Source: Parcubacteria group bacterium Gr01-1014_8 (GTDB lineage Bacteria > Patescibacteriota > Minisyncoccia > Phycocordibacterales > UBA2100). From it: a stretch of DNA of 64,000 nt. Position numbers and translations under genes: made by a program. This document shows positions 1-12,750 of this stretch, in pieces (position 1 is the first letter of the stretch; every line of letters begins with the position of its first letter). The notes beneath the pieces were generated by a model that did no database searches, had not been told where the DNA came from, and was given only the letters and a program-made list of their open reading frames with translations. The DNA is taken from NCBI GenBank assembly GCA_007376385.1, contig VMGC01000001.1, forward strand, positions 343,898-407,897, written 5' to 3'.

Positions 1-3000
1 TCGGGAGGTGTCCCGACGTGGGGAACTGATTTGACTTCCGGAGGTGGCGCGGATGGCACATGGTCGACGACTACCTCACAAGTCTCTGGCACGTTGATCA
101 ATTACCCTAACAATGCATCCGACATCGTTGCCATCGGCTCCACGGCGACGACATCTGCGGAGTACTGGTTTGACCCGAATACGACGATTGCCTATCTTTC
201 AGGAAAAGTTGGCATCAGCACCACCTCCCCCTACTCAAAGTTAACGTTGTGGGGGAGCGCCTCACTATTTGAGGCAGTGAACACATCTTCGACAACGATC
301 TTTTCAATAGGCCAATCAGGCGCGACAACAACGAATCTCGGAATTTCGGGAATAGCAAGTTCCCTGCTCAAAACAACATCTACCGGAGGAGTGGTTGCTG
401 CGATACCCGACACCGATTACCTCAATACCGCAAGTTCGATCGAATTACTTGGCGACGTCGCCGCGATGACGGAGAATTACGGCGATCTCTTGTATTGGAA
501 TGGCTCCGCGTGGGCTGATCTTGCGACGTCATCGCTTGGGATTGCGATCAGTGACACCACGGGAACACTTGCAGTTGCACGAGGCGGCACTGGTCAAACC
601 ACATTCTCCTCCTCGCAACTTCTCTACGGAAACGGAACCAACGCGCTTTCGTCTGTCGCAACCTCCTCACTCTCCGCAGGAACCGGTGTCACGTTCTCTG
701 GAACTGCCGGCTCTCTCGTTGGAGGCACTGCACTCACCATCAATACACCGTGGACCATCTCCGGAAACAACATCTACAACAACAACATTGCAAATGCCGC
801 CATCGGCACATCAACTCCCTACGCCACCACCACGATCTGGGGTAACACTGCTTCAAAGATATTTGAAGTCGTTGCAAACGCTTCATCCACCGTATTCTCT
901 GTTGCACAAAGTGGAGCTACTACAACCAACCTCGGCATTACTGGCGTCACCAATTCGCTCTTGAAGACCACATCAACCGGTGGAGTCGTTGCAGCGGTCG
1001 CAGGCACGGATTACGCGACACTGTCACAAACATTTGGAAAAGCGTGGGAGATCGACGGTAACGGCTTTACCGGATTCCTTGCACCGACAACAACGCAGAA
1101 AGTGTGGATCGGGCAGGCGTCGTCGACGCTTCTATCGGTGAATGGCCCTGCATACTTTGGCTCAACCGCAACCTCCTCATTCTCAACCGCCGGCGTCCTC
1201 ACGCTTGCCACCGATCTCGCAGTCACCGAAGGAGGCACCGGAGCTTCCACGCTCACCGGCCTTCTCCAAGGAAACGGCACGTCGGCGTTCACCGCCATCA
1301 CTGATTCATCCACGGTGGGACAGATACTCCGTGTGACTGGTGCATCAACATACGCCTGGGGAGCACTGAACCTTGCAGACACTGACGCCATCACCGGAAC
1401 GCTTCCCATCTCCAACGGAGGCACCAACAACACCACCTACTCCACCAACGCGCTCCTCTACTTTGACGGAACATCCATCACTGCTACTTCCACCAGACCC
1501 CTCTACGTCGGCGCTATCAATGCCACCACAACAGCCACCTCCACTTTTGCAGGAGGCATCTCTGTTCTCAACTTCGCACAGACAGGAACAGCAACAAGCA
1601 CGCTCGCAAACGGGCTCACCTTAACCGGTGGCTGTGTCATGGTGAACGGAAACTGCATCTCACCCGTTGGGAACTCCTCCATCGAAGATTTGAACGACGT
1701 TGCTGCGATGACGGAGAACTATGGAGACCTTCTTGGATGGAACGGCAGCACGTGGACTGACTTTGCCACCACCTCACTCTTCACCGGTTCCAACGGGCAG
1801 ATGCTTGCATACGCGAATGGCGGGTGGACGGGAGTTGCAACAACAACAGCCGGCACTGGTCTCACATACACCGGCTCTGCGTTCAATGTTGACCTTGGTA
1901 CCTCTATTAGCGCAGCTGAGATCGCAGACGGCGATCACGGCGACTTCACATACACCAGCGGTGTTGCAGCCATCGATGCAAACGCCGTCACCCTCGGCAC
2001 CGACACAACAGGGAACTACGTTGCAACACTCGCAGATTCAGGCGGAGGAACACTCACCATCTCCAACTCAGGCAGCGAGACAGCGGCAGTGACAGCCTCC
2101 CTCAACCTTGGCAACGCCAACATCTGGACTGGCAAGCAGAACTTCTTTGGTTCTGCATCGTCGACGCTGTTCTCAGCGAACTGGCTCAAAGTCGGTCAAA
2201 CAGCATCAACCACATTCGATTCCGCTGGCAACGCAACCATCGGCGGCACCTTGAACGTCACCGGTCAAACTACACTTGCCACTTCACTCACTGGATTACT
2301 CAAAGCAACCGCAGGAGTTGTCTCCTCTGCAACAGAAGGCACTGACTACCTCTCCAATGCACTCCGCGATTGGTCAGTACAAGGCAACGGATACCTTGCA
2401 CCAACGACAACGAGAGGAATCATCGTTGTTGCATCATCCACCATCGGCGCGGGAGGACAAGCGACGGGGCTCACCATTTCAGGAGGCGCGACGACGACGG
2501 GGAATGCGTATTTTGCAGGGAATGTGGGTGTTGGGACAGCTGCACCAAGTCAAAAATTGCAAGTTGTTAACGGCGCTATTGATATCAACACCGACGACCA
2601 GTTCTTGTACTTCGGTAGCGGGGACGCCGGCATCAGGGAAAGCGGTGCCAATTTGAAATTTGAGACGTATACGGGCGCTGCACTCACCGAAAAAATGAGA
2701 ATTACTGGCGCAGGCAACGTCGGCATCGGGACCACCACTCCCGCAACCCTCCTCTCCATCGCCGGCACGAGCGGCCTCTTTGCCTCCACGACCGCCACCT
2801 CCACCTTCCAAGGCGGCGGGATTAACTTGCTCACGGCGGCGGGGAATACGGGATGCTTTGCGGTGAATGGGACGTGTCTTTCCAATACCGCTTCCGGCAT
2901 CGTCGGAAGCGGCACCACCGGACAATTTCCGTACTATGCCGCCAACGGCACGACTTTGACGGCGACCTCGACACTTTTCGTCTCGACCGCGAGCAATGTT

Positions 3001-6000
3001 GGGATCGGTGCCACCTCTCCCGCAGCAAAGTTAGACGTCGAAGGTTCCGGTGCGGTCTTGACCGACATCATGGTAGGCAACTCACAGGCCAATGCAAACT
3101 TCGGTATTTCCGCGGCAGGAGTTCCCCACCTTTGGACGAACAATGCCTCGTGGCCGCTTGTGCTCGGTGTCGGTGGCGCAGAGAAAATGAGAGTGCACAC
3201 GGATGGAAACGTAGGGATCGGAGCAGGTGCAACGGGTCCCGGGGCACTCCTCACGGTTGACTCTGGTGCAGCGTCTCTCACGGACATCTTGGTCGGCAAC
3301 TCGCAAGCGAACGCGAATTTCGGAATCTCCGCAGCGGGCGTAGCCCATCTGTGGTCAAATAATTCAAGTTGGCCTCTTGCGTTCGGCATTGGAGCCGCGG
3401 AAAATATGCGAATCCACACGAACGGCAACGTGGGGCTCGGGAACACCTCCCCCTCCTACAAACTCGACGTCGCAGGGTTCATCAACACCGACCAATTCTC
3501 CGGCTACAAGCAGAACGGCACGACCATTCTCTATTCATCTTCGACGCTTGCCACGATGTTCGGCGGCTACCAGGCCGGCAATGGTCAAGTGCAATCAGGA
3601 ACCGGACTCTACAATACCGCGTTTGGCTATCAGGCGCTCTTGAGCGCCACGTCGTCTAGCAGAAGCACAGCGGTCGGCTTTTCAGCGCTCGCAAGTCAGG
3701 CGAATGCCAATGGCAACGATGCGCGTAATACCGCAGTTGGTTCCCAAGCGCTCGGCGGCACAACGTACGGTTACTACAACACAGCTGTCGGCTCTGATGC
3801 TCTCGCTGCCAACACGACCGGATACTTCAACAGCGCATTTGGCCAGGGCGCGCTCACTGGCAATACGACCGGCCGCGATAACATTGCAATTGGCTACAAT
3901 TCCGTGAGTCAAAGTACAGCCGCCCTCGAAAATATAGGTATCGGCAACTCCTCGCTTTCAGGAGCGTCGCTCACGGGGGCAGACAACATCGCTATCGGTC
4001 GGCAGGCTGGGAGCGCCATGTCGAGCGGGAGTTACAACATACTGATTGGCCAATATCTCTACAACAGCGGCACCGTCTTTACTGGCTCAAACAACATCAT
4101 CATCGGGCGCGACATCGGCTCGACCGCATCTCCCTTGGTTTCGACGACAACAAGCAACGCGCTCAACATCGGCAACTTGATTTTCGCGACCAGTCTCGGC
4201 ACGGCGGACACTCTTTCGACGGGTAATGTGGGTATTGGAACAGCGGCACCGAATTATCAACTTTCAAACAACTCCGCGAGTAATAACCTGGATTCGGGTT
4301 CCACGGGGCTCTCGACCGCAAGTAGTTTCAACTGGGCGAACAACGGCTCCGGCTACGGTGCAGGATTGTATAACGCAAGCGCCAATTCGGATGCAAACGG
4401 GCTGTTGGTAAAAATTCGCGGTACGGCCTCTACCAACAAAATTCTCTCGCTCGACACGGGCACGACGCAAGCCGGCGCGGGAACAAATGTGCTGACGGTA
4501 TTAGGAAGCGGCAACGTCGGCATTGGGACGACGAGTCCGCGCAGCGCCCTCTATTTCCAGGCGAACAGTAGCGATCCATCGTTAACATCATGGACAGGCA
4601 TAGGGACGATGCGCGCTAGTACTGGTGTAGAACTTGCGATGGGTGCAGACGATACGACACCTTTCGGCGCGTGGCTGCAAACGAAAGACAGCACAAATGG
4701 CGGTACATCCTATCCACTGCTCCTCAATCCTCTCGGCGGCAACGTTGGCATCGGGACGACTACGCCTCAAACGGCGTTGCATGTAAACGGTATTCTCGCG
4801 GCAACGCCAAGCTACGGCTTTTACTGGTACAACGGGGCAACATTCAAAGGCGCACTCAAGCATAACTCATCCAACGATAACCTTGAGATATACACCGCCT
4901 CTGATGGCAGCACGCCGCGGCTCACAGTCCAAAGTTCTTCCGGCAACGTCGGTATCGGGACGACCAGTCCCGTGTCGATACTTGCTGTTGCTGGTGCCAA
5001 TCCTGTACTTACCCTCAATCAAACGAGTAGCGGTAATGTTTCTGGCTTAAAGATAACGAATGGAGTAAATACGCTAGGCACATTTACAGTAGCAATAGAT
5101 ACAGGCGAGGTCAGGATAGGTGGTACGTCTAGCGGCGGTTATTATGATACTTTCTACGCCGATGGTTCGGAAAGGATGAGGATTACAGCAGCAGGCAACG
5201 TCGGCATCGGGACGACGACGCCGCAGTGGCTTTTGAATCCGACTTCGGCAAGCGCATCACAACTTGCCCTTTCGGCGGGGGCGGGCATCGCGCAATGGAC
5301 GTTTAGGAATGCAGGCGGGAATTTGTATCTCTCAACAACTACCGTTGCAGGAACCGCAACGACATCGATAAGCGCGCTTGAGATTGCGGGCGGAGGATTA
5401 GGAACGACAACCGTGAGAGGGCTAAACATCAGCGCTGGCGCAACATCAACGTCTAATGTGGGCTTCTCACTCACGAGCGGATGCTTTGCAACGCCCGCGG
5501 GCTGTATCTCGGGCGTTGGCGATTCTTCCATCGAAGCATTGAACGACGTTGCTGCGATGACGAAAAACTTCGGTGACTTACTGTATTGGAATGGCACAAC
5601 ATGGACTGATCTAGCAACGTCGTCGCTTGCGGTAAATTTCTCCGACCTCATTGGTTCAGCGACAGATGCACAGGTTACGAATGCGCTCACAATTTCCGGC
5701 GGCGTGATTTCGGGGACGAACACGGTGTCGGGTACGTGGAATACGACAAACACGCTTACCATCGGGAACGGCGGCGACCGCATCGACGTCAATTCGAGCG
5801 GATGGGATGTGACGGACAGCGTGATTTCAGGCGCAACCTATCAAGGCAACACGATTGGCACCACCTACGGAGGCACAAATGCGACAGGTTTCAGCAGCCA
5901 TGCGCTTCTTGCATTTAACGGTACGAGCATCGTCGCAACGTCTACTATCGGCTTTCAGTCATTTAATGCGACATCAACCACTGCGACGTCGACCATTGCT

Positions 6001-8856
6001 GGCGGCCTTGCAGTCGAGACCTCCGGCCTCGTGTACGACTACTCGACCAACCGCGTCGGCATTGGGACGGCGAGCCCTTCCAACAAATTACATATTGCAT
6101 CATCCGCGAATGACTCAACGCTTTTCATACAGCAAACGTCTGGCACACAGCGAGCTGATATCCGGATCGACAACGACGGCGGCTATATGCTTATCGGCCG
6201 CGAAAACAGTGCTGGCGGATCACTTGCGGTCGGTTCGACCGGCTATTTTGGCGTCATGAATGTCAACAATGCCTACGGTCTGCAATTTGGTACCAACAAC
6301 ACCGTCCGAGCGACGATCGACTCCTCCGGCAACGTCGGCATCGGGACGACGAGTCCAGCGACTTCGCTTTCAGTATCGGGAAGCGGGTACCTCACTGGCG
6401 CGCTTGGCGTAGGCGCGGTCGCGACGGGCTTCACCAACCTTCTCGTCAATGACAACTCAAACACTGCGCACAATAACGATGAGGGTATTGTTGTGAAAAA
6501 TACAAACACTGGCAGTTCTGCCGGCGCTAGCATCAATCTTCGAAACGACGGCACATATCATGGATTCATGCAGATGAATTCTGGGGCAAACACATCATTG
6601 GCGGGAGCAAATAGTTTCAACATCGGTGCTGAGCACAACATTAATTTCGGATTCATCACCAATGATGCGCTTCAGATGACATTGAATACCACCGGTCTCG
6701 GCATCGGGAACACCTCCCCCTCCTACAAACTCGATGTCGCGGGGTTCATCAACACCGACCAATTCTCCGGCTACAAGCAGGCGGGGAATACTATACTGTA
6801 TGCGTCGAGCACGAATGCCACGGTATTTGGTGGACAAGGCGCAGGAAGCGCGATGCAAACGTCTGGAACCGGTGCGTACAACACCGCGTTTGGGTACGGT
6901 GCCCTTACTACAGCGACATCGTCTAGTAGAAGCACTGCAATTGGATTTAATGCACTCGCCAACCAAGCGAACAGTAACGGCAACGACGCACGCAACACGG
7001 CCGTCGGTTCCGACTCTTTGGCGGCAACTACGTACGGCTACTACAACGTCGGCGTCGGCGCCTCGGCGCTCACCGCCAACACGACAGGCGCTTTCAACGT
7101 GGCACTTGGTGTCGGGGCTTTGCAGACGGCAACATCCACGAACAACGTGACTGCCATCGGCTACAACGCGCTCGGCGCTATGATTTGTTGCGGCCCGGCA
7201 GGGACGACGCCGGCAAATGTCGTGGTAGGCCACCAAGTCGCTCGTCAAGCGACGACTGCCTACGGTATTACAGGAATCGGGTATGGCGCCTTGGATTCGC
7301 TCACGACCGGACACGACATCGTGGCACTTGGATCGCAGGCAGGGCATATGGTCACGACTGGCACTAACAGTATATTCCTTGGCGATCTCTCCGGCTTCAA
7401 AGACAGTGCCGGTGCGAACACCGCCATCACGGGCGACAACAATATCATCATCGGCAATAACCAGCTCATGATCCCGAACGCCGCCGGCTCCAATCAACTC
7501 AACATCGGCAACCTCATCTTCGGCACCAGCCTCTCAACCGGCGCGACAGTTTCGACCGGCAACGTCGGCATTGGGACGACGAGCCCACGTTCGATTCTCC
7601 ACGCTGTGGCCGGTGCTTCGGGAGTTTTGCCCAACGCAGGCACGACCTTCACTATGGAGAGCAACACGGCCAACTACTTGAGCATGCTCACAGCGAGCAA
7701 CGCCGCAAACGGAATTCTCTTTGGTACGCCGACGAGCGCAATCGATGCCGGCATTCTCTACAACAGCAACGGTTCGGCACGAGATTTGCAGTTCCGCACC
7801 GGCGTCAACAACACGCGGATGACGATTGATTCTACCGGCAACGTCGGCATCGGGACGACGACGCCGTTTCGCAAACTTTCTATCACGGATGCAGTATCGA
7901 CCGCACAGCAAGCGATCGCGTACGACTCGACGCGCTGGACTGACCTCCTTACAGACTCTGTTGGGGATCTCACCATCAATCCGCAAGGCGACGATGTGTT
8001 CTTGAATGCGGACAATCTTTGGGTGTGTACCGGCGGCTCGTGTCCGAGCGGGACGCCAGCAGGGACGGGTAATTTGATCGTTGAAACGAAATTGGGCGTG
8101 GCCAGTTCGACACCGTTCGCGACGCTCGGTGTGAAGGGTTCTGCTGCATCGACGGCATATACGTTCATGACAACCAACAGTTCCGATTCTCCGACGTTCA
8201 ACATCCAAGATAACGGCAATGTGGGTATTGGTACCACGACGCCCACGAAACAATTTTCCATCTCGAGTCTCCTCTATGTCGGTGCAGGCGGTGCAACAGG
8301 AATGGGAACAGCGACATCGACTTTCCAAGGTGACATCAAGATAATTGGTAAACTTGATGTCGGTACGATTGACCCGGTCTATACAATAGACGGCACGAAG
8401 TATGCGACGTATGGTCATTCAACCGTTGGTATCAAAGAAGAGGTAACGGCAAAACTGGCAGTCAACGAGTATGACGAAGCTCGAGATTTGTATCGAACAA
8501 CAATTCGTTTCGATGAGTTGGAAAAGGGAAGCGACCTTTGGCTTTTCTATGAGATCACTCGATTCGGACTTGAATGGGAGCATCTCGTCGTGAACTTGAC
8601 GCCGGCATTCGACGGCCGCGTGTTCTACGAAGAAGATATCGTCGAGAACTCTCTGACAATATACGCCGACAAGTCCGGCTTTGTTTCTGCGCGGCTCATC
8701 GCGGACAGATTCGACGCAGAAACGTGGCCGAACATTCGTCCTGACCAGGACGGAAATACCGAAGGCACGCACAATATAACTTCGAAATTGCCGGGAGGGG
8801 TGCTCCGAGCGGCAGCTACAGCAACCGAAGCCGTCTCATCGTGGTTCAATGAATAA
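1..8856 (+). CDS. Giant repetitive surface protein (more than 2941 aa; 5' end lies outside the window). It has about 30 'GNVGIGTTSP...KL.V'-type repeats, resembling phage-tail-fibre or adhesin-like repeats.
   Basis: The ORF is open from nt 1 (no in-frame stop upstream of the annotated TTG at 31) to the TAA at 8854-8856. The NVGIGT motif recurs throughout. A 'SIEDLNDVAAMTENYGDLLGWNGSTWTD' module occurs three times (nt ~420, ~1680, ~5520). There are internal tandem and segmental duplications. Composition is Thr/Ser/Gly/Asn-rich. Confidence 0.8.
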   Translation, partial: SGGVPTWGTDLTSGGGADGTWSTTTSQVSGTLINYPNNASDIVAIGSTATTSAEYWFDPNTTIAYLSGKVGISTTSPYSKLTLWGSASLFEAVNTSSTTIFSIGQSGATTTNLGISGIASSLLKTTSTGGVVAAIPDTDYLNTASSIELLGDVAAMTENYGDLLYWNGSAWADLATSSLGIAISDTTGTLAVARGGTGQTTFSSSQLLYGNGTNALSSVATSSLSAGTGVTFSGTAGSLVGGTALTINTPWTISGNNIYNNNIANAAIGTSTPYATTTIWGNTASKIFEVVANASSTVFSVAQSGATTTNLGITGVTNSLLKTTSTGGVVAAVAGTDYATLSQTFGKAWEIDGNGFTGFLAPTTTQKVWIGQASSTLLSVNGPAYFGSTATSSFSTAGVLTLATDLAVTEGGTGASTLTGLLQGNGTSAFTAITDSSTVGQILRVTGASTYAWGALNLADTDAITGTLPISNGGTNNTTYSTNALLYFDGTSITATSTRPLYVGAINATTTATSTFAGGISVLNFAQTGTATSTLANGLTLTGGCVMVNGNCISPVGNSSIEDLNDVAAMTENYGDLLGWNGSTWTDFATTSLFTGSNGQMLAYANGGWTGVATTTAGTGLTYTGSAFNVDLGTSISAAEIADGDHGDFTYTSGVAAIDANAVTLGTDTTGNYVATLADSGGGTLTISNSGSETAAVTASLNLGNANIWTGKQNFFGSASSTLFSANWLKVGQTASTTFDSAGNATIGGTLNVTGQTTLATSLTGLLKATAGVVSSATEGTDYLSNALRDWSVQGNGYLAPTTTRGIIVVASSTIGAGGQATGLTISGGATTTGNAYFAGNVGVGTAAPSQKLQVVNGAIDINTDDQFLYFGSGDAGIRESGANLKFETYTGAALTEKMRITGAGNVGIGTTTPATLLSIAGTSGLFASTTATSTFQGGGINLLTAAGNTGCFAVNGTCLSNTASGIVGSGTTGQFPYYAANGTTLTATSTLFVSTASNVGIGATSPAAKLDVEGSGAVLTDIMVGNSQANANFGISAAGVPHLWTNNASWPLVLGVGGAEKMRVHTDGNVGIGAGATGPGALLTVDSGAASLTDILVGNSQANANFGISAAGVAHLWSNNSSWPLAFGIGAAENMRIHTNGNVGLGNTSPSYKLDVAGFINTDQFSGYKQNGTTILYSSSTLATMFGGYQAGNGQVQSGTGLYNTAFGYQALLSATSSSRSTAVGFSALASQANANGNDARNTAVGSQALGGTTYGYYNTAVGSDALAANTTGYFNSAFGQGALTGNTTGRDNIAIGYNSVSQSTAALENIGIGNSSLSGASLTGADNIAIGRQAGSAMSSGSYNILIGQYLYNSGTVFTGSNNIIIGRDIGSTASPLVSTTTSNALNIGNLIFATSLGTADTLSTGNVGIGTAAPNYQLSNNSASNNLDSGSTGLSTASSFNWANNGSGYGAGLYNASANSDANGLLVKIRGTASTNKILSLDTGTTQAGAGTNVLTVLGSGNVGIGTTSPRSALYFQANSSDPSLTSWTGIGTMRASTGVELAMGADDTTPFGAWLQTKDSTNGGTSYPLLLNPLGGNVGIGTTTPQTALHVNGILAATPSYGFYWYNGATFKGALKHNSSNDNLEIYTASDGSTPRLTVQSSSGNVGIGTTSPVSILAVAGANPVLTLNQTSSGNVSGLKITNGVNTLGTFTVAIDTGEVRIGGTSSGGYYDTFYADGSERMRITAAGNVGIGTTTPQWLLNPTSASASQLALSAGAGIAQWTFRNAGGNLYLSTTTVAGTATTSISALEIAGGGLGTTTVRGLNISAGATSTSNVGFSLTSGCFATPAGCISGVGDSSIEALNDVAAMTKNFGDLLYWNGTTWTDLATSSLAVNFSDLIGSATDAQVTNALTISGGVISGTNTVSGTWNTTNTLTIGNGGDRIDVNSSGWDVTDSVISGATYQGNTIGTTYGGTNATGFSSHALLAFNGTSIVATSTIGFQSFNATSTTATSTIAGGLAVETSGLVYDYSTNRVGIGTASPSNKLHIASSANDSTLFIQQTSGTQRADIRIDNDGGYMLIGRENSAGGSLAVGSTGYFGVMNVNNAYGLQFGTNNTVRATIDSSGNVGIGTTSPATSLSVSGSGYLTGALGVGAVATGFTNLLVNDNSNTAHNNDEGIVVKNTNTGSSAGASINLRNDGTYHGFMQMNSGANTSLAGANSFNIGAEHNINFGFITNDALQMTLNTTGLGIGNTSPSYKLDVAGFINTDQFSGYKQAGNTILYASSTNATVFGGQGAGSAMQTSGTGAYNTAFGYGALTTATSSSRSTAIGFNALANQANSNGNDARNTAVGSDSLAATTYGYYNVGVGASALTANTTGAFNVALGVGALQTATSTNNVTAIGYNALGAMICCGPAGTTPANVVVGHQVARQATTAYGITGIGYGALDSLTTGHDIVALGSQAGHMVTTGTNSIFLGDLSGFKDSAGANTAITGDNNIIIGNNQLMIPNAAGSNQLNIGNLIFGTSLSTGATVSTGNVGIGTTSPRSILHAVAGASGVLPNAGTTFTMESNTANYLSMLTASNAANGILFGTPTSAIDAGILYNSNGSARDLQFRTGVNNTRMTIDSTGNVGIGTTTPFRKLSITDAVSTAQQAIAYDSTRWTDLLTDSVGDLTINPQGDDVFLNADNLWVCTGGSCPSGTPAGTGNLIVETKLGVASSTPFATLGVKGSAASTAYTFMTTNSSDSPTFNIQDNGNVGIGTTTPTKQFSISSLLYVGAGGATGMGTATSTFQGDIKIIGKLDVGTIDPVYTIDGTKYATYGHSTVGIKEEVTAKLAVNEYDEARDLYRTTIRFDELEKGSDLWLFYEITRFGLEWEHLVVNLTPAFDGRVFYEEDIVENSLTIYADKSGFVSARLIADRFDAETWPNIRPDQDGNTEGTHNITSKLPGGVLRAAATATEAVSSWFNE

Positions 8857-8927
8857 TTATGGTGAAAAATATGTTGTTTGGGATACTCGGAAATCGTGCG
8901 CTGACTCCGGCCGAGGTGAAGCATCTC

Positions 8928-8968
8928 AAGGTCATATCGAGGTCGATATCAAGGTCGGACCTCGATAC
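8928..8968. repeat. REP-like repeat copy 1 (atatcgaggtcgatatcaaggtcggacctcga), 3' of the transposase gene
   Basis: Hairpin tcgaggtc...gacctcga. It shares the core 'atatcaagg(t/c)c(g/c)gacctcg' with copies at 9677 and 9766. Confidence 0.6.
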
Positions 8969-8977
8969 GCTTGTGTG

Positions 8978-9664
8978 TCACGGTGCCGCCGATTCCACGC
9001 GGAAGTCGAGCCATTCCGAGACCTGCGATTTAAAGTCGAGAGGCGAATCAAAGTACTCCGACAGCGCTGCGGCGTTCACGATGCGGCTCTCCAGACGTTT
9101 CTCACGAGTGTAATCGTGAAAGCTCGACCAACGGTATCCGTCGAGGAATTTTTCCGCCGCGCGCCGGTTTGCGATGCCGGTTTCTTTCCAAGTCGGCTCG
9201 ATGAGCTTGACGGGGTTCAGATGGATATACGAAACGAGGTATTTGAAGTATCGGTCGTCTGCCACGTGCGTCGCCTTATATTTCCCCTGAAAAAGGACGC
9301 CGCTTCGTTTTTGGCGGGTGTTAAAATACATCGTATACCCGGTTTGGAGCTTCTGCATGAATCGGGAAATACCGCCGTTCCTAATCTCACGAAGCATGAG
9401 GTGGAAGTGATTCGGCATGAGGCAGTGCGCGCATATGTCCACGAGCGGTTTTCCCCGATCAAGCGAGAGAAGATGGGGAAGAGAGGTCTGGATTTCGTTG
9501 CTGATGTGCACGGTGTTCTCGCCGTTTGCAAGAAACAAAAGCGCGAGAAAGCGCTTATGGTCGGGTACAGAGGTAAAGATTTTCCGTTTTTCAGTGCCGC
9601 GGTTGTAGACATGATACGTCTCATCGACAGTAAACGGTATGCGTCTCATCTTCTGTATTTTCAC
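8978..9664 (-). CDS. IS200/IS605-family Y1 (HUH) transposase, REP-associated tyrosine transposase (RAYT)-like
   Basis: HUH motif 'HCLMPNHFHLML' and catalytic Tyr motif 'YIHLNPVK'. The gene is flanked by REP-like repeats. Length is 228 aa. Confidence 0.75.
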   Translation of the reverse strand: MKIQKMRRIPFTVDETYHVYNRGTEKRKIFTSVPDHKRFLALLFLANGENTVHISNEIQTSLPHLLSLDRGKPLVDICAHCLMPNHFHLMLREIRNGGISRFMQKLQTGYTMYFNTRQKRSGVLFQGKYKATHVADDRYFKYLVSYIHLNPVKLIEPTWKETGIANRRAAEKFLDGYRWSSFHDYTREKRLESRIVNAAALSEYFDSPLDFKSQVSEWLDFRVESAAP

Positions 9665-9676
9665 TCGCGGTGCCTA

Positions 9677-9712
9677 AATATCAAGGCCCATATCAAGGCC
9701 CGACCTCGATGG
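9677..9712. repeat. REP-like repeat copy 2
   Basis: aaatatcaaggcccatatcaaggcccgacctcgatgg. Same orientation as copy 1. Confidence 0.55.
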
Positions 9713-9765
9713 CGACGATGGCGATGGGAATGGAGATACTGTTGCCGACCGGCAGCAATATCTCA

Positions 9766-9800
9766 AATATCAAGGTCATATCAAGGTCGGACCTCGGGGG
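9766..9800. repeat. REP-like repeat copy 3
   Basis: aaatatcaaggtcatatcaaggtcggacctcggggg. Confidence 0.55.
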
Positions 9801-9806
9801 TGGTGG

Positions 9807-10064
9807 TTGCGCCTCGCCGCGAGGCGCTACGACACAGAAAAGTGGCCAAATCTACGGCCGGATCAAGACGGCTATACAACGGGCACGCATGTAATTAGTT
9901 CGAAGCCAAAGGCAGGCGAGCAGGCGAGGGATGAGAGCAAAGTGTCGCATGTATCGGCTGTAGTAACTGCGACCAGCGCTATCGCGCAGATCTCGTCATT
10001 CGCGACAAGTACCATTGAATTTGCGACCAGCACATTCTTCAAACTGCTAGCATGGTTTCAGTAA
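9807..10064 (+). pseudogene. Fragment encoding a diverged copy of the giant protein's C-terminal motif (…EKWPNLRPDQDGYTTGTHVISSKPK… vs …ETWPNIRPDQDGNTEGTHNITSKLP…). Likely a remnant or alternative 3' cassette.
   Basis: Protein-level similarity of ~25 residues to aa ~2890-2915 of ORF 31..8856. The nucleotide sequence is diverged. No upstream N-terminal domain. Confidence 0.35.
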
Positions 10065-10149
10065 ACGATATTTAAAGTTCAAGATGATTTAAAAAATGAA
10101 AAGTCCAAAACAGAGACAGAGATGCAATTCATGAGTATACTTATTGACA

Positions 10150-10707
10150 ATGCGTAAGCGAGATTTCTTCTACATCGCACTTCTCTGCTTTCTGCCTGCA
10201 GCTGCCTTCGCGGTGACCATGACCGTAAACACTGTCGTGACGGGCAATGTAAGTGTAGTCGGAGCGCTCTCGAAGGGTTCCGGTACGTTCATGATTGATC
10301 ACCCGCTTGACCCGAAAAATTCGCTCCTGTACCATTCGTTCCTCGAATCTCCTGACGTCAAGAACATCTACGACGGTGTCGCGAATCTCGACAAGAACGG
10401 AGAGGCCACGATCGCGTTACCAGGTTATTTTCTTGCACTCAACAAGGATTTCAGGTATCTCGCGACATCAATGAGCGGGCCTATGCCGAATCTGCATCTC
10501 ATGCGCGGAGTTCGGAGAGAGTGGTTTGTAGGCGACCCTACATTCAGGATAGCTGGGGGCGTACCGGGCGGCACTATCTCCTGGCAGGTAACGGGTATAC
10601 GCAAGGATCCTCTCATTGTCGCGAATCCTATTATAGTCGAAGTTGAAAAGGGTGCTGAAGCACTGATATTAAAGGGGGAGTGTCTCTTTGAACTCCTTTG
10701 CAGATGA
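10150..10707 (+). CDS. Secreted protein, paralog A of a three-gene family sharing a conserved ~120 aa C-terminal domain (FxIDHPLDP…LYHSF(V/L)ESP(D/E)VKN(I/L/F)YDG…SWQVTGIR(H/K)D)
   Basis: Signal peptide 'MRKRDFFYIALLCFLPAAAFA'. The ATG is the 3rd codon of the listed ORF. The C-terminal domain is alignable with ORFs 10688..12028 and 12019..12750. Confidence 0.7.
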   Translation: MRKRDFFYIALLCFLPAAAFAVTMTVNTVVTGNVSVVGALSKGSGTFMIDHPLDPKNSLLYHSFLESPDVKNIYDGVANLDKNGEATIALPGYFLALNKDFRYLATSMSGPMPNLHLMRGVRREWFVGDPTFRIAGGVPGGTISWQVTGIRKDPLIVANPIIVEVEKGAEALILKGECLFELLCR

Positions 10708-12028
10708 ACATATAATTATCATGCACACAAAACTTTCGACATATTCGTTGTTTTGGTGGGCTCTTGCACTCATCGTCGGCATTTCTTTTTTGCTTGCGCT
10801 TCTCTTTCCTGTAGAGAGATTGTCAGCCGCGCCCACGGTAAAAATCTATCTTGATTCAGGAACATCATTCGTCATCCCCGGAGATTGGAACTCTTCAAAC
10901 AATTCTATCGAAGTTATCGGCGGCGGCGGCGGCGGCGGTACTCCAAGCGCTCTTTGTAGCGCCGGAGGAGGAGGCGGCGCATATTCAAAAGCCGCGAACG
11001 TCTCGCTTACGGCCGGTGCGTCGGTTACCTACGCTATTGGTGATCGCGGTATCGAACAGACGGCAGGGGGTGATACGTATTTTTGTAATTCGACGTTGAA
11101 CTGCGCTTCCATTTCTGGTACTGCCGTGCAGGCAGGTGCGAAGGGCGGAAATGGCGCCAGCGGTGGCACTGGAGGATCTGGCGGTGCATCCGCAAGCGGC
11201 GTTGGAAGCACCAAATTTAGTGGGGGAAATGGCGCCGGAACTGGAAGCAGCACTGGCGGCGGCGGCGGAGGTGCTGCTGGACTAAATGGTGCAGGTAATA
11301 ACGGCTCGGGAACAACTGGCGGTAGTGGCGATGCTGGAAACGGCGGTGCAGGTGGGACCGCAAATAATCCCGGTGGTGCGGGTACCGAATACGATTCTGT
11401 ACACGGTTCCGGCGGAGGCGGTGGCGGAGCAACGGGCGCGGGCGGTGGCGCAGCGGGAGGGAATTTTGGGGGCGCCGGCGGCGGCGGATGCGCATCTGGA
11501 GGCATCGGTAAACGAGGGATGATTGTTCTTACGTACGTTTCGTCTGCGACTCTTACACTTTCCGGAAATGTTAAATTCGCCGGCAATTTAACCATCACTA
11601 GTACTTTAGCAAAAAGCTCCGGCACATTTGTGATTGACCATCCGCTCACGCCGCGCACGCATCTTTTGTACCACTCATTTGTTGAATCACCGGAAGTGAA
11701 GAATCTCTACGACGGTATTGCAAAACTTGACGCGCAGGGCGAGGTAGCAATCGAGCTTCCCGATTATTTTGAAGCACTGAACAAAGATTTCCGCTATCAA
11801 TTCTTTCCTCACTTCGAAGCGATGCCTGGTCTCTATGTGAAGCAAGAAGTGAAGGACAACTCATTCATCATAGCTGGAGGAAAGCCGGGCGGAGAAATAT
11901 CGTGGCAAGTCACGGGTATCCGCCACGATGCGTTTATTCTCGCAAATCCGATTATCGTTGAGGTCCCGAAAACAAACTCGACTGTCGTGCCGAGGGGTAT
12001 GTGTCTGTTTGAGCCGTTATGCAAATGA
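10688..12028 (+). CDS. Secreted/membrane-anchored paralog B. It has a long Gly-rich (GGN repeat) low-complexity middle region and the family C-terminal domain.
   Basis: TM/signal 'LFWWALALIVGISFLLALLF'. About 230 aa of G/A/S/N/T low complexity. C-terminal 'FVIDHPLTPRTHLLYHSFVESPEVKNLYDG…ISWQVTGIRHD'. Overlaps paralog A by 20 nt. Confidence 0.7.
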   Translation: MNSFADEHIIIMHTKLSTYSLFWWALALIVGISFLLALLFPVERLSAAPTVKIYLDSGTSFVIPGDWNSSNNSIEVIGGGGGGGTPSALCSAGGGGGAYSKAANVSLTAGASVTYAIGDRGIEQTAGGDTYFCNSTLNCASISGTAVQAGAKGGNGASGGTGGSGGASASGVGSTKFSGGNGAGTGSSTGGGGGGAAGLNGAGNNGSGTTGGSGDAGNGGAGGTANNPGGAGTEYDSVHGSGGGGGGATGAGGGAAGGNFGGAGGGGCASGGIGKRGMIVLTYVSSATLTLSGNVKFAGNLTITSTLAKSSGTFVIDHPLTPRTHLLYHSFVESPEVKNLYDGIAKLDAQGEVAIELPDYFEALNKDFRYQFFPHFEAMPGLYVKQEVKDNSFIIAGGKPGGEISWQVTGIRHDAFILANPIIVEVPKTNSTVVPRGMCLFEPLCK

Positions 12029-12750
12029 GCGCTGTTCAGAGTGCGACGGTGTGTGGCGTATTGTCACTTGTGTTGGCGATTCTTTTCCCCATGCGAACTT
12101 TCGCGGGCTACGCTGAAAGTGCGTATTACTCGCAGTCGACCTACTACTCGCAGTCGACCTACTACTCGCAGTCGACCTACTATTCACAGGGAACATATGT
12201 GACGACGTTTAGCAATAACGCGACGGCGGGAACTAATTTCACCGTCGCGGGCACGATTAATAAAGGTTCCGGTTCATTCGTCATCGACCATCCGCTCGAT
12301 CCAAAAAATAAGCTGCTCTATCACTCGTTCGTTGAATCTCCTGACGTGAAGAATTTCTACGACGGTATAGCAACGCTCGACACAAAGGGCGAAGCAGTCA
12401 TTCGGCTTCCCGCGTATTTTATGGCACTCAACAAAGAATTTCGGTACCAACTAAAACCCATTGGCGGGCCGCAGCCTGATCTGCACATTAAGGATGAAAT
12501 CTCAGGAAATCGCTTTACGATTGCGGGTGGCGGGCCACGCGGGCGCGTATCGTGGCAGGTCACGGGGATCCGTCATGATCCGTACATCGAAGCGAATCCT
12601 ATCGAGGTCGAGGTAAAAAAAGGTACAGATCCCGAGAAAAGCGTCTTCGTGCTCTATGGAGGGTTTTTGCACGAGGACATTTATCCGCAGACGATCCAAC
12701 CCGCGATATCTACATATATGAGAAAGATACTTAGTTTGTTCGGCAATTGA
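12019..12750 (+). CDS. Secreted paralog C with a (YYSQST)n repeat and the family C-terminal domain
   Basis: Signal peptide. A perfect 18-nt tandem repeat encodes YYSQST x3-4. C-terminal 'FVIDHPLDPKNKLLYHSFVESPDVKNFYDG…VSWQVTGIRHD'. Confidence 0.7.
   Translation: MQMSAVQSATVCGVLSLVLAILFPMRTFAGYAESAYYSQSTYYSQSTYYSQSTYYSQGTYVTTFSNNATAGTNFTVAGTINKGSGSFVIDHPLDPKNKLLYHSFVESPDVKNFYDGIATLDTKGEAVIRLPAYFMALNKEFRYQLKPIGGPQPDLHIKDEISGNRFTIAGGGPRGRVSWQVTGIRHDPYIEANPIEVEVKKGTDPEKSVFVLYGGFLHEDIYPQTIQPAISTYMRKILSLFGN
12124..12195 (+). repeat. 18-nt tandem repeat (tactactcgcagtcgacc) x3 plus degenerate flanking copies, coding YYSQST
   Basis: Direct reading of sequence 12121-12195. Confidence 0.8.

Follow-up and report, generated by a model that had tools for sequence, protein, structure and literature searches.

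A probable displaced 3' end of a giant fibre gene beside a RAYT/TIRYT-like transposase in a Parcubacteria genome

Introduction

Why would the closing motif of a surface-fibre protein be encoded twice in close succession, with a transposase gene lying between the two copies? The question is raised by a 64-kb stretch of DNA (hereafter, the window) from Gr01-1014_8, a groundwater metagenome-assembled genome (MAG) of Parcubacteria, within the Candidate Phyla Radiation (CPR). Here, the 3' part of a giant, repeat-rich surface-fibre gene is followed by palindromes resembling repetitive extragenic palindromic (REP) sequences, by a transposase gene on the opposite strand, by further palindromes, and finally by a diverged fragment that encodes the end of the fibre protein a second time (hereafter, the orphan). 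We consider it likely that the orphan is the former 3' end of the fibre gene, displaced when the distal part of the gene was replaced, and that it now lies beside a unit of the REPtron/TIRtron type. The arrangement is a genuine mark of mobile-element-associated rearrangement, and a rather ordinary one.

Two ends of a fibre gene at one locus

The giant gene (1..8856, + strand) contributes more than 2,951 codons to the window; its translation is open from base 1, the gene continues past the window's left edge, and its stop codon lies at 8854-8856. Homologues, their alignment and a tblastn search against the window delimit a C-terminal domain (GKLDVGTIDPVYTIDG...WPNIRPDQDG...WFNE) encoded at 8347..8853 (+), with the WPNIRPDQDG motif at 8725-8754. 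The last 169 amino acids (aa) used as a query recovered 27 homologues, every one of them the 3' end of a CPR gene cut by the end of its contig. Their alignment revealed a conserved C-terminal domain closing in WPNLRPDQD..H....K, and in most members the protein stops within a few further residues. A subset comprising the orphan and the homologues P0121, P0129, P0131 and P0143 extends into a long Ala/Ser-rich tail that closes with ...ATST..KLLAW.... Because the intact genes P0129, P0131 and P0143 carry this same tail, that of the orphan represents a natural C-terminal variant; judging by the sequences, the present tail of the giant gene looks like a shortened version of it. P0129 and P0131 had themselves been considered as further orphans, and this was rejected since both read open right up to the start of their contigs, marking them as contig-truncated ends of ordinary genes.

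The orphan (9810..10064, +) consists of the last 84 codons and the stop of a long-tail fibre 3' end (RLAARRYDTEKWPNLRPDQDG...LLAWFQ*), truncated on its 5' side. The frame read from 9765 encodes ...EKWPNLRPDQDGYTTGTHVISSKP..., and the match to the C-terminus of the giant protein comprises 23/36 identical aa (BLASTP, E 6e-15). Homology begins at 9810, 12 nucleotides (nt) after the third palindrome copy, and the stop at 10062-10064 is separated from the next gene by 79 nt. The initial annotation of this locus, made without database searches, took the fragment for a true homologue of the giant C-terminus, diverged and not a target duplication. Both points held: the similarity to the giant protein and to P0121 reaches the stop, far beyond the short motif, and over 99 homologous nt the orphan is 65% identical to the current end of the giant gene, the longest exact match being 8 nt, so that the fragment is the product neither of target duplication nor of a tandem duplication in the recent past. 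These are the only two copies of the fibre C-terminal domain that tblastn found in the window. The junctions are not an artefact of MAG assembly, because an independent Logan assembly of SRR8863434 (L001, 4,320 bp) is 100% identical over 7837-12156, all junctions included. No gene was called at the orphan on L001.

A search with the orphan as query recovered P0121, which is 79% identical to it along its full length. The ratio of nonsynonymous to synonymous substitution (dN/dS) between the two is ~0.2, which suggests that they diverged mostly inside working genes. P0121, carried on contig L021, is likewise 5'-truncated, being cut 22 codons further upstream than the orphan, and it looks mosaic, resembling the giant's own C-terminus ahead of the motif and the orphan after it. 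Its context (L021 2-208, 288-620) is unlike that of the window, as it stands directly after an open reading frame (ORF) that by eye is DUF86/HepT-like. After P0121, 22-nt inverted repeats (L021 ~635-656 and ~805-827) enclose ~150 nt of GC-rich sequence in the manner of a miniature inverted-repeat transposable element.

The giant protein (1-8856) also contains large internal duplications. The sequence SPSYKLDVAGFINTDQFSGYKQ... is present twice, with a long similar segment after each copy; SSIE(D/A)LNDVAAMT(E/K)N(Y/F)GDLL.WNG..W.D.ATSSL is found several times, and a GNVGIGTTSP-type motif recurs throughout. The contigs of relatives consistently end within giant genes of such repeat structure.

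Synteny with related genomes

What lies between the fibre gene and its neighbour in related genomes? The first conserved gene downstream encodes a 187-aa protein (10144..10707, +) and, lying outside the inserted block, served as the synteny anchor. On the related contig L104, the stop of the giant gene is followed after 28 nt by a homologue of the 187-aa gene and then, in window order, by counterparts of the 446-aa gene (its C-terminal part), the 243-aa gene and the 396-aa gene. On L106, 75 nt separate a long-tail giant 3' end from the homologue of the 187-aa gene, behind which comes a further member of the same group of paralogues. No transposase, palindrome or second C-terminal copy was found in L104, L106, L102 or L103. 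Because the giant 3' end abuts the next gene in L104 and L106, the 1.29-kb block at 8857-10143 is extra DNA in the window; it holds one intact, probably single-copy, transposase gene between cognate near-palindromes. Since the orphan sits where the giant 3' end lies in these two relatives, a displaced former 3' end is its best reading.

The downstream genes form a paralogue trio, in which the 187-aa protein, the C-terminal part of the 446-aa protein and the 243-aa protein share a domain of ~160 aa (…IDHPLDPKNSLLYHSFLESPD…; window 10144-10707, 11550-12028 and 12019-12750; L104 425-2272; L106 753-1993). The whole trio follows the giant gene in the same order on L104, and the shorter L106 contig carries the first two members. 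No Pfam family was found for the trio proteins, apart from a sub-threshold match to Gly_rich_2 in the 446-aa protein.

Identity of the transposase

The ORF at 8978..9649 (-) encodes a Y1 HUH tyrosine transposase of the RAYT/TIRYT-like kind, 223 aa long from an ATG start (with an alternative GTG at 9664). The initial annotation had recognized a minus-strand Y1-HUH transposase from its motifs and had called for a profile search with Pfam Y1_Tnp (PF01797), in which the protein scored 35.7 bits against a cut-off of 23 and all 32 aligned homologues also matched. The motifs HFHLML, LFQG, YIHLNP and WSSF are present. Both NHFH (the HUH motif, residues 80-83) and YIHLNP (141-146) are invariant in the family alignment, and all 44 residues invariant among its 32 members are kept, including YNRG, LMPNHFH and YxHLNP. 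Against the NCBIfam equivalog REP_Tyr_transpos (NF047646), the transposase scored 43.6 bits, under the cut-off of 80, and all 32 family members likewise matched only below the cut-off (best E-value 1.7e-15).

A Protein Data Bank (PDB) search with the single sequence gave no match, and a search with the family profile gave marginal ones (4ER8, E 0.027; ISDra2, E 0.08); structural kinship was decided by fold comparison. An AlphaFold2 model built on the 32-member alignment (predicted local distance difference test, pLDDT, 86.6) found its closest genuine PDB match by Foldseek in 4ER8, the REP-bound E. coli TnpA-REP, with a template modelling (TM) score of 0.65 and a root-mean-square deviation (rmsd) of 3.6 Å. 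The TnpA proteins of IS608, ISDra2 and IS200 followed, and the entries 4ER8, 2A6M, 2XM3, 2VJV and 2F4F were matched at probability 0.99-1.00 and TM 0.5-0.65. Matches to Thg1 were disregarded (TM ~0.3, rmsd 12 Å). The model places helices in the C-terminal region (residues 154-215); a Pfam scan of the C-terminal 72 aa gave no match even at E <= 10, with no similarity to helix-turn-helix (HTH) or DnaA_C-like domains.

The family is very large, with 7,436 homologues at E <= 0.001, and the named sources among the best 120 matches are CPR groups without exception. Homologues are 40-64% identical overall, the best of them 55-64%, and no near-identical copies were seen; the 90%-identity protein cluster of the transposase has one member, and the window holds one copy. 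Motifs and length fit TnpA-Y1 subclass 2.1, an assignment made by motif only. Of the initial label "IS200/RAYT-like", the second half can be retained in the form RAYT/TIRYT-like, whereas motifs and length set the enzyme apart from IS200 proper. A 349-aa ORF (8849-9898, +), antisense to the whole transposase gene and the repeats, was set aside as most likely a shadow ORF.

Palindromes of the window and of the transposase family

Three near-palindrome copies accompany the transposase gene in the window (8934-8966, 9678-9710 and 9766-9798). They read GCGTATCGAGG... and are of a type that can be written ATATCRAGGYCSGRCCTYGATAT, each being a near-palindrome ATATCAAGGTC-G-GACCTCGATAT after one or two tandem extra half-units. 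Repeat cluster 1 (8922..8967), 11 nt past the transposase stop, contains the half-units CATCTCAAGGTC and ATATCGAGGTC and then the near-palindrome ATATCAAGGTC-G-GACCTCGATA. Cluster 2 (9678..9710), upstream of the transposase start, reads ATATCAAGGCC CATATCAAGGCC-C-GACCTCGAT; cluster 3 (9766..9798) pairs with cluster 2 and bounds the orphan on its left. Exactly three copies of the 19-mer ATATCAAGGYCSGACCTCG are present on the + strand, where shuffles gave 0.03 matches at <=3 mismatches, and the palindrome is absent from the other ~63 kb of the window. Folded as single-stranded DNA, repeat 1 reaches -11 kcal/mol (z -4.0), and copies 2 and 3 join through 16-17 bp into a REPIN-like doublet (-21.9 kcal/mol, z -2.2). 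The initial annotation had given all three copies the same orientation. The stem mismatch does have one polarity in all three, A:C when read on the + strand and G:T on that of the transposase. Copy 2, however, carries its loop in the opposite sense to the loops of copies 1 and 3, and each copy is in any case nearly palindromic.

The half-sites are units of 11-12 nt, (C/A)ATATCAAGGYC, found at 8922-8956, 9678-9700 and 9766-9788, and arm duplications of this kind also occur at the family loci L015, L075 and L081. Between clusters 2 and 3 lie GATGGCGAY short direct repeats (9711-9735) and a 32-nt imperfect palindrome (9733..9764; GAGATACTGTTGCC-GACC-GGCAGCAATATCTC; -7.5 kcal/mol, z -3.6), which forms the tip of the long hairpin made by repeats 2 and 3.

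To what extent is this layout shared by the family? Among 85 loci (five homologue loci and 80 from metagenomes), ~70 carry one lineage-specific palindrome in two places, upstream of the gene and at its stop. The upstream copy is centred a median of 44 nt ahead of the start and the other a median of 11 nt after the stop (+11). The suggestion that cognate palindromic repeats flank the transposase is thus borne out by the window copies and by ~70/85 homologous loci. The family core is caAGG-N5-CCTtg, with lineage-specific outer stems that show paired changes; their covariation score of 0.70 (shuffles 0.17, slid controls 0.10-0.16) is biased, because the aligned windows were chosen for symmetry. 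In a control less prone to circularity, 52-59% of flanks had at least 10 of 12 symmetric pairs, as did 3% of 2,805 background windows drawn from these loci. No position outside caAGG-N5-CCTtg is conserved in 65 upstream and 61 downstream copies, and these show no GTAG-like tag. Few copies lie at a distance from the gene; at least eight of the longest (~20-kb) family loci have just the two flanking copies. The name REP accordingly suits the repeats as cognate palindromes flanking their gene; in the strict sense it is unproven, given the missing GTAG tag and the lack of dispersed copies in the 64 kb. G:T and A:C stem mismatches, counted by strand, number 24 and 23, showing no bias and being uninformative.

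The 19-mer of the window was not matched around close homologues at <=4 mismatches; these homologues bear palindromes of their own. Exact copies occur elsewhere as solo, mostly intergenic sites in genomes of Campbellbacteria, Nomurabacteria, Taylorbacteria, Paceibacterota and two Omnitrophota MAGs, and on one Nomurabacteria contig two identical copies bracket a 42%-identical transposase homologue. These hits amount to 10 stretches in 596 Gb, which does not exceed a crude uniform expectation of ~17, and the case for the 19-mer therefore rests on the concentration in CPR and on the extended palindromic context. In the Omnitrophota MAGs, the copies (L005 7732-7750; L009 5937-5955 and 7416-7438) stand just upstream of the start of a homologous gene, and no transposase homologue was found within the fetched 8 kb of L005 and L009.

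In ~25/85 family loci, a further copy of the locus's own palindrome lies in frame within the transposase gene, at a fixed +152..170 of the coding sequence and ahead of the HUH motif. It encodes QG(R/S)TL and covaries with the flanking copies (L012 3146-3180; L015 3154-3180; L016 256-279); the window transposase retains a degenerate trace only (EIQTSL). At the locus of a 60%-identical homologue (L012 3667-3948), the 3' coding end of a convergent gene for a 3,180-aa protein contains three palindromes, translated as ELSRLNLD inside a 132-nt tandem duplication. Such palindromes can thus become part of the sequence that encodes the C-terminal tail of a giant protein next door.

Promoter overlap and proposed action of the enzyme

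The upstream palindrome also coincides with a promoter-like site of the transposase gene (TTGATA-16-GAAAAT, 9657..9684, -). Its right arm CCTTGATA provides a -35-like hexamer 16 nt ahead of GAAAAT (9684-9657, minus strand), this hexamer being the duplicated right arm of repeat 2. At most family loci (upstream palindromes, L012-L101), a TATAAT box follows the upstream palindrome at promoter spacing, and the right arm (CCTTGnnn) accordingly appears to serve as a -35 element. This placement suggests that the promoter could be repressed by the product of the gene that it serves.

If the enzyme acts as TnpA-REP and IS608 TnpA do, it would recognize the palindrome in hairpin form on single-stranded DNA; Tyr141 would cut beside the hairpin, with His81 and His83 holding the metal, and the strands would then be religated. 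Such activity may occasionally copy or rearrange palindromes. Binding of the upstream palindrome, which covers the -35 region, would offer a route to autoregulation. We infer this catalytic scheme, the autoregulation and the recombination route described below; directly observed are the identity of the transposase, the palindromes flanking it across the family, the homology and placement of the orphan, and the lack of the block in syntenic relatives.

Origin of the arrangement

How, then, did the fibre gene come to have a second end? We favour, as the likely explanation, a replacement of its distal part. DNA from a related strain would have replaced the distal giant gene through a homologous crossover within the gene, bringing its own 3' end together with a transposase unit downstream of it. 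The right junction would have been illegitimate, falling at repeat copy 3 inside the 3' end of the resident gene, and the old 3' end (its last 84 codons) would have been left stranded before the next gene as a dead-end remnant.

Several observations weigh against this account. No close relative examined has the donor arrangement or the left crossover, and synteny cannot separate the old 3' end of the same gene from the end of a lost second tandem copy. The frame of the orphan is still open and the L021 fragment is cut elsewhere beside a different gene, so that such fragments may be retained for a reason. As for the palindromes, the covariation score carries the selection bias described above, the 19-mer is no more frequent than the crude expectation, and the even strand distribution of mismatches means that a single-strand hairpin is not demonstrated over a double-stranded palindromic site. 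Copy counts of palindrome and transposase cover the window, the other ~344 kb of the contig lying outside them, and the genomes scanned for the 19-mer did not include the source genome.

The main alternative, weaker than a displaced 3' end and in our estimation unlikely, is that two fibre genes once stood in tandem with the transposase unit between them, and that the second was deleted up to repeat copy 3, leaving 84 codons. The initial annotation had put forward a related idea, a tandem paralogue disrupted by the element; the synteny of L104 and L106 makes it the poorer choice, although it keeps its place as an alternative. A palindrome copy does bound the orphan on its left, and the 65% nt identity between the orphan and the end of the upstream gene is what would be expected of paralogues. 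The contigs of relatives, moreover, break inside the giant gene, so that either copy might be the one abutting the homologue of the 187-aa gene. Against this, none of the relatives examined has two copies of the C-terminal domain at the locus, the window itself has only the two, and the scenario requires an extra gene and a deletion of more than 8 kb where distal replacement requires a single event.

An account to which we assign a similarly low likelihood is that of an active, autonomous IS200-like element extending from repeat 1 to repeat 2 or 3 (~0.75-0.85 kb), inserted recently, with the palindromes as its subterminal hairpin ends and not as REPs. The hairpin-to-hairpin distance of ~630-745 nt is IS200-sized, most of the long family loci have flanking copies only, the unit is missing from syntenic relatives, and neighbouring genes vary by lineage. 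The enzyme, however, bears class-2 RAYT-like motifs (Y---NP, NHFH, 223 aa) and not Y---Q, DH[VI]H and ~150 aa (PMC6006769 Table 1). A mobile element of this kind also sits poorly with a single copy in 64 kb, a single-member 90% cluster, and homologues that are 40-64% identical, none seen to be near-identical. Solo palindromes distant from any transposase in other genomes, and an upstream hairpin doubling as a promoter -35 element at a fixed distance, point in the same direction.

The orphan might instead be a silent C-terminal cassette, as the initial annotation had also proposed, with recombination at the stretch encoding WPN(I/L)RPDQDG swapping the fibre tail, possibly aided by single-strand breaks made by the transposase. 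It starts 11 codons ahead of the conserved motif and its frame is intact over 84 codons; its dN/dS against the L021 fragment is ~0.2, P0121 looks mosaic, and L021 provides a second, independently truncated fragment. We nevertheless regard the idea as very improbable. Identity of 65% and a longest identical stretch of 8 nt fall well short of the requirements of homologous recombination, the orphan lies in direct orientation and has no matching crossover sites, and the palindromes do not bracket exchangeable segments, repeat 1 lying past the giant's stop. Profile scans found no invertase or integrase in the interval, where the Y1 enzyme is the sole recombinase-like gene. Only one cassette is present, three of the relatives with known context have none, and the low dN/dS is equally explained by a past inside intact genes.

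The same annotation suggested, more broadly, that 3'-end shuffling could be driven by RAYT/REP systems that neighbour surface-fibre genes. This does not agree with the family at large: at ~85 other loci of the transposase family, the fibre C-terminal domain is never nearby and the neighbouring genes vary. Among the first five loci, three had a very large gene convergent with the transposase gene; in the 80-locus sample the neighbours varied and the domain was never present, and a general link of the transposase family to giant genes or to the fibre C-terminal domain was rejected. A still more speculative variant, in which stranded open 3' fragments (here and on L021) are kept as donors for fibre-tail replacement near the WPN(I/L)RPDQDG stretch, promoted by Y1 nicks at the palindromes, receives very little credence from us; if true, it would amount to a transposase-assisted surface-variation device in ultra-small CPR bacteria. 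Least plausible of all is that the orphan ORF (TTG 9807-10064, 85 aa) is expressed as a small protein of its own, for although it is open, shows the dN/dS of ~0.2 and has a counterpart on L021 called as a 108-aa gene, it was not called on L001, has no promoter-like site upstream on the + strand, would start at a TTG straight after G-rich palindrome sequence, and belongs to a region that is otherwise always the C-terminal end of very large proteins.

Implications

Replacement of the distal end of the fibre gene would explain the puzzling duplicate motif as a scar: a new end in place, a transposase unit behind it, and the old end stranded. Following up this locus also exposed a very large, well-conserved RAYT/TIRYT-like family, mostly from CPR, with a uniform layout in which palindromes occupy the promoter -35 and the stop codon and often an in-frame site within the gene as well. 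As a compact, low-copy system in reduced genomes, the family could be used to probe the role of "domesticated" enzymes that have almost no repeat family.

Comparison with known systems

The nearest published counterpart in motifs is the TIRYT/TIRtron, which corresponds to TnpA-Y1 subclass 2.1 and to RAYT Group 1 (Di Nocera et al., 2013, PMC3733652; Bertels et al., 2017, PMC5581495; Quentin et al., 2018, PMC6006769). Subclass 2.1 is characterized by NH[YF]H, FQ, Y[IV]HLNP and an "SS" in the tail, at ~220-240 aa (~238) (PMC6006769 Table 1), and the window protein resembles it in NHFH, LFQG, YIHLNP, WSSF and its 223 aa. Further likenesses to TIRtrons are an apparently low copy number with only small repeat families, and inverted or self-complementary flanking repeats that can overlap the 5' or 3' end of the gene. 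Quentin et al. report no REP-like structures for subclass 2.1 (PMC6006769), while Di Nocera et al. allow unrelated, self-complementary terminal inverted repeats (PMC3733652). The present unit differs in that the flanks of the gene lack GGGGWSAS and carry short hairpin-type CAAGG-N5-CCTTG palindromes. No HTH/DnaA_C-like similarity was found in the C-terminal 72 aa. CPR is not named as a host clade in PMC6006769, and a literature search combining RAYT and "Candidate Phyla Radiation" returned only irrelevant papers.

REPtrons, the E. coli-type RAYT/TnpA-REP genes with REPs and bacterial interspersed mosaic elements (BIMEs) (Nunvar et al., 2010; Messing et al., 2012, 4ER8; Ton-Hoang et al., 2012), share with the present unit the HUH Y1 fold, 4ER8 being the nearest solved structure (TM 0.65), and the class-2 Y---NP motif (YIHLNP; criterion of PMC6006769). 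They also share the placement of a single gene between cognate palindromes, with an inverted REPIN-like doublet included, and the covariation of palindromes and protein between lineages. In contrast to REPtrons, the window transposase scores under the NF047646 cut-off (43.6 vs 80), the hairpin foot in this family lacks a GT[AG]G guide tetranucleotide, and no high-copy dispersal was seen, the three copies in 64 kb all lying at the gene. In subclass 2.4 (RAYT Group 4), REPs are inserted in frame inside tnpA, which recalls the ~25/85 family loci with their own palindrome in the transposase gene. The site is fixed in this family (+152..170, before HUH), unlike the variable sites between HUH and Y of subclass 2.4; the Y motif is YIHLNP in place of YIxNNP, and the window gene has lost or lacks the internal copy.

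With the IS200/IS605 elements (IS200, IS608, ISDra2), the unit has in common the enzyme superfamily, hairpins at both ends, a size of ~0.7 kb and, by analogy, an expected chemistry of single-strand cleavage beside a hairpin. It differs in having Y---NP and not Y---Q, NHFH and not DH[VI]H, and 223 vs ~150 aa, as well as in lacking tnpB; multiple identical copies were not seen, and the best non-self homologue is 64% identical. An invertible or shufflon-type tail-fibre switch is a poorer model still, as the orphan lies in direct orientation, crossover repeats do not surround both C-terminal copies, and there is no invertase.

For the orphan itself, a parallel exists in the polymorphic Rhs and CdiA genes, whose C-terminal displacement leaves "orphan" 3' ends behind. 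The resemblance lies in a 5'-truncated, diverged C-terminal copy downstream, cut near a conserved motif and separated from the gene by mobile-element DNA. Here, unlike in Rhs and CdiA, there is no toxin/immunity pair and only a single fragment, and the genes that follow are conserved structural paralogues also present in relatives without an orphan. Nothing in the transposase family or at the locus is categorically new; the layout, with little dispersal seen and no GTAG tag, is that of a REPtron/TIRtron built on a non-canonical, low-copy palindrome.

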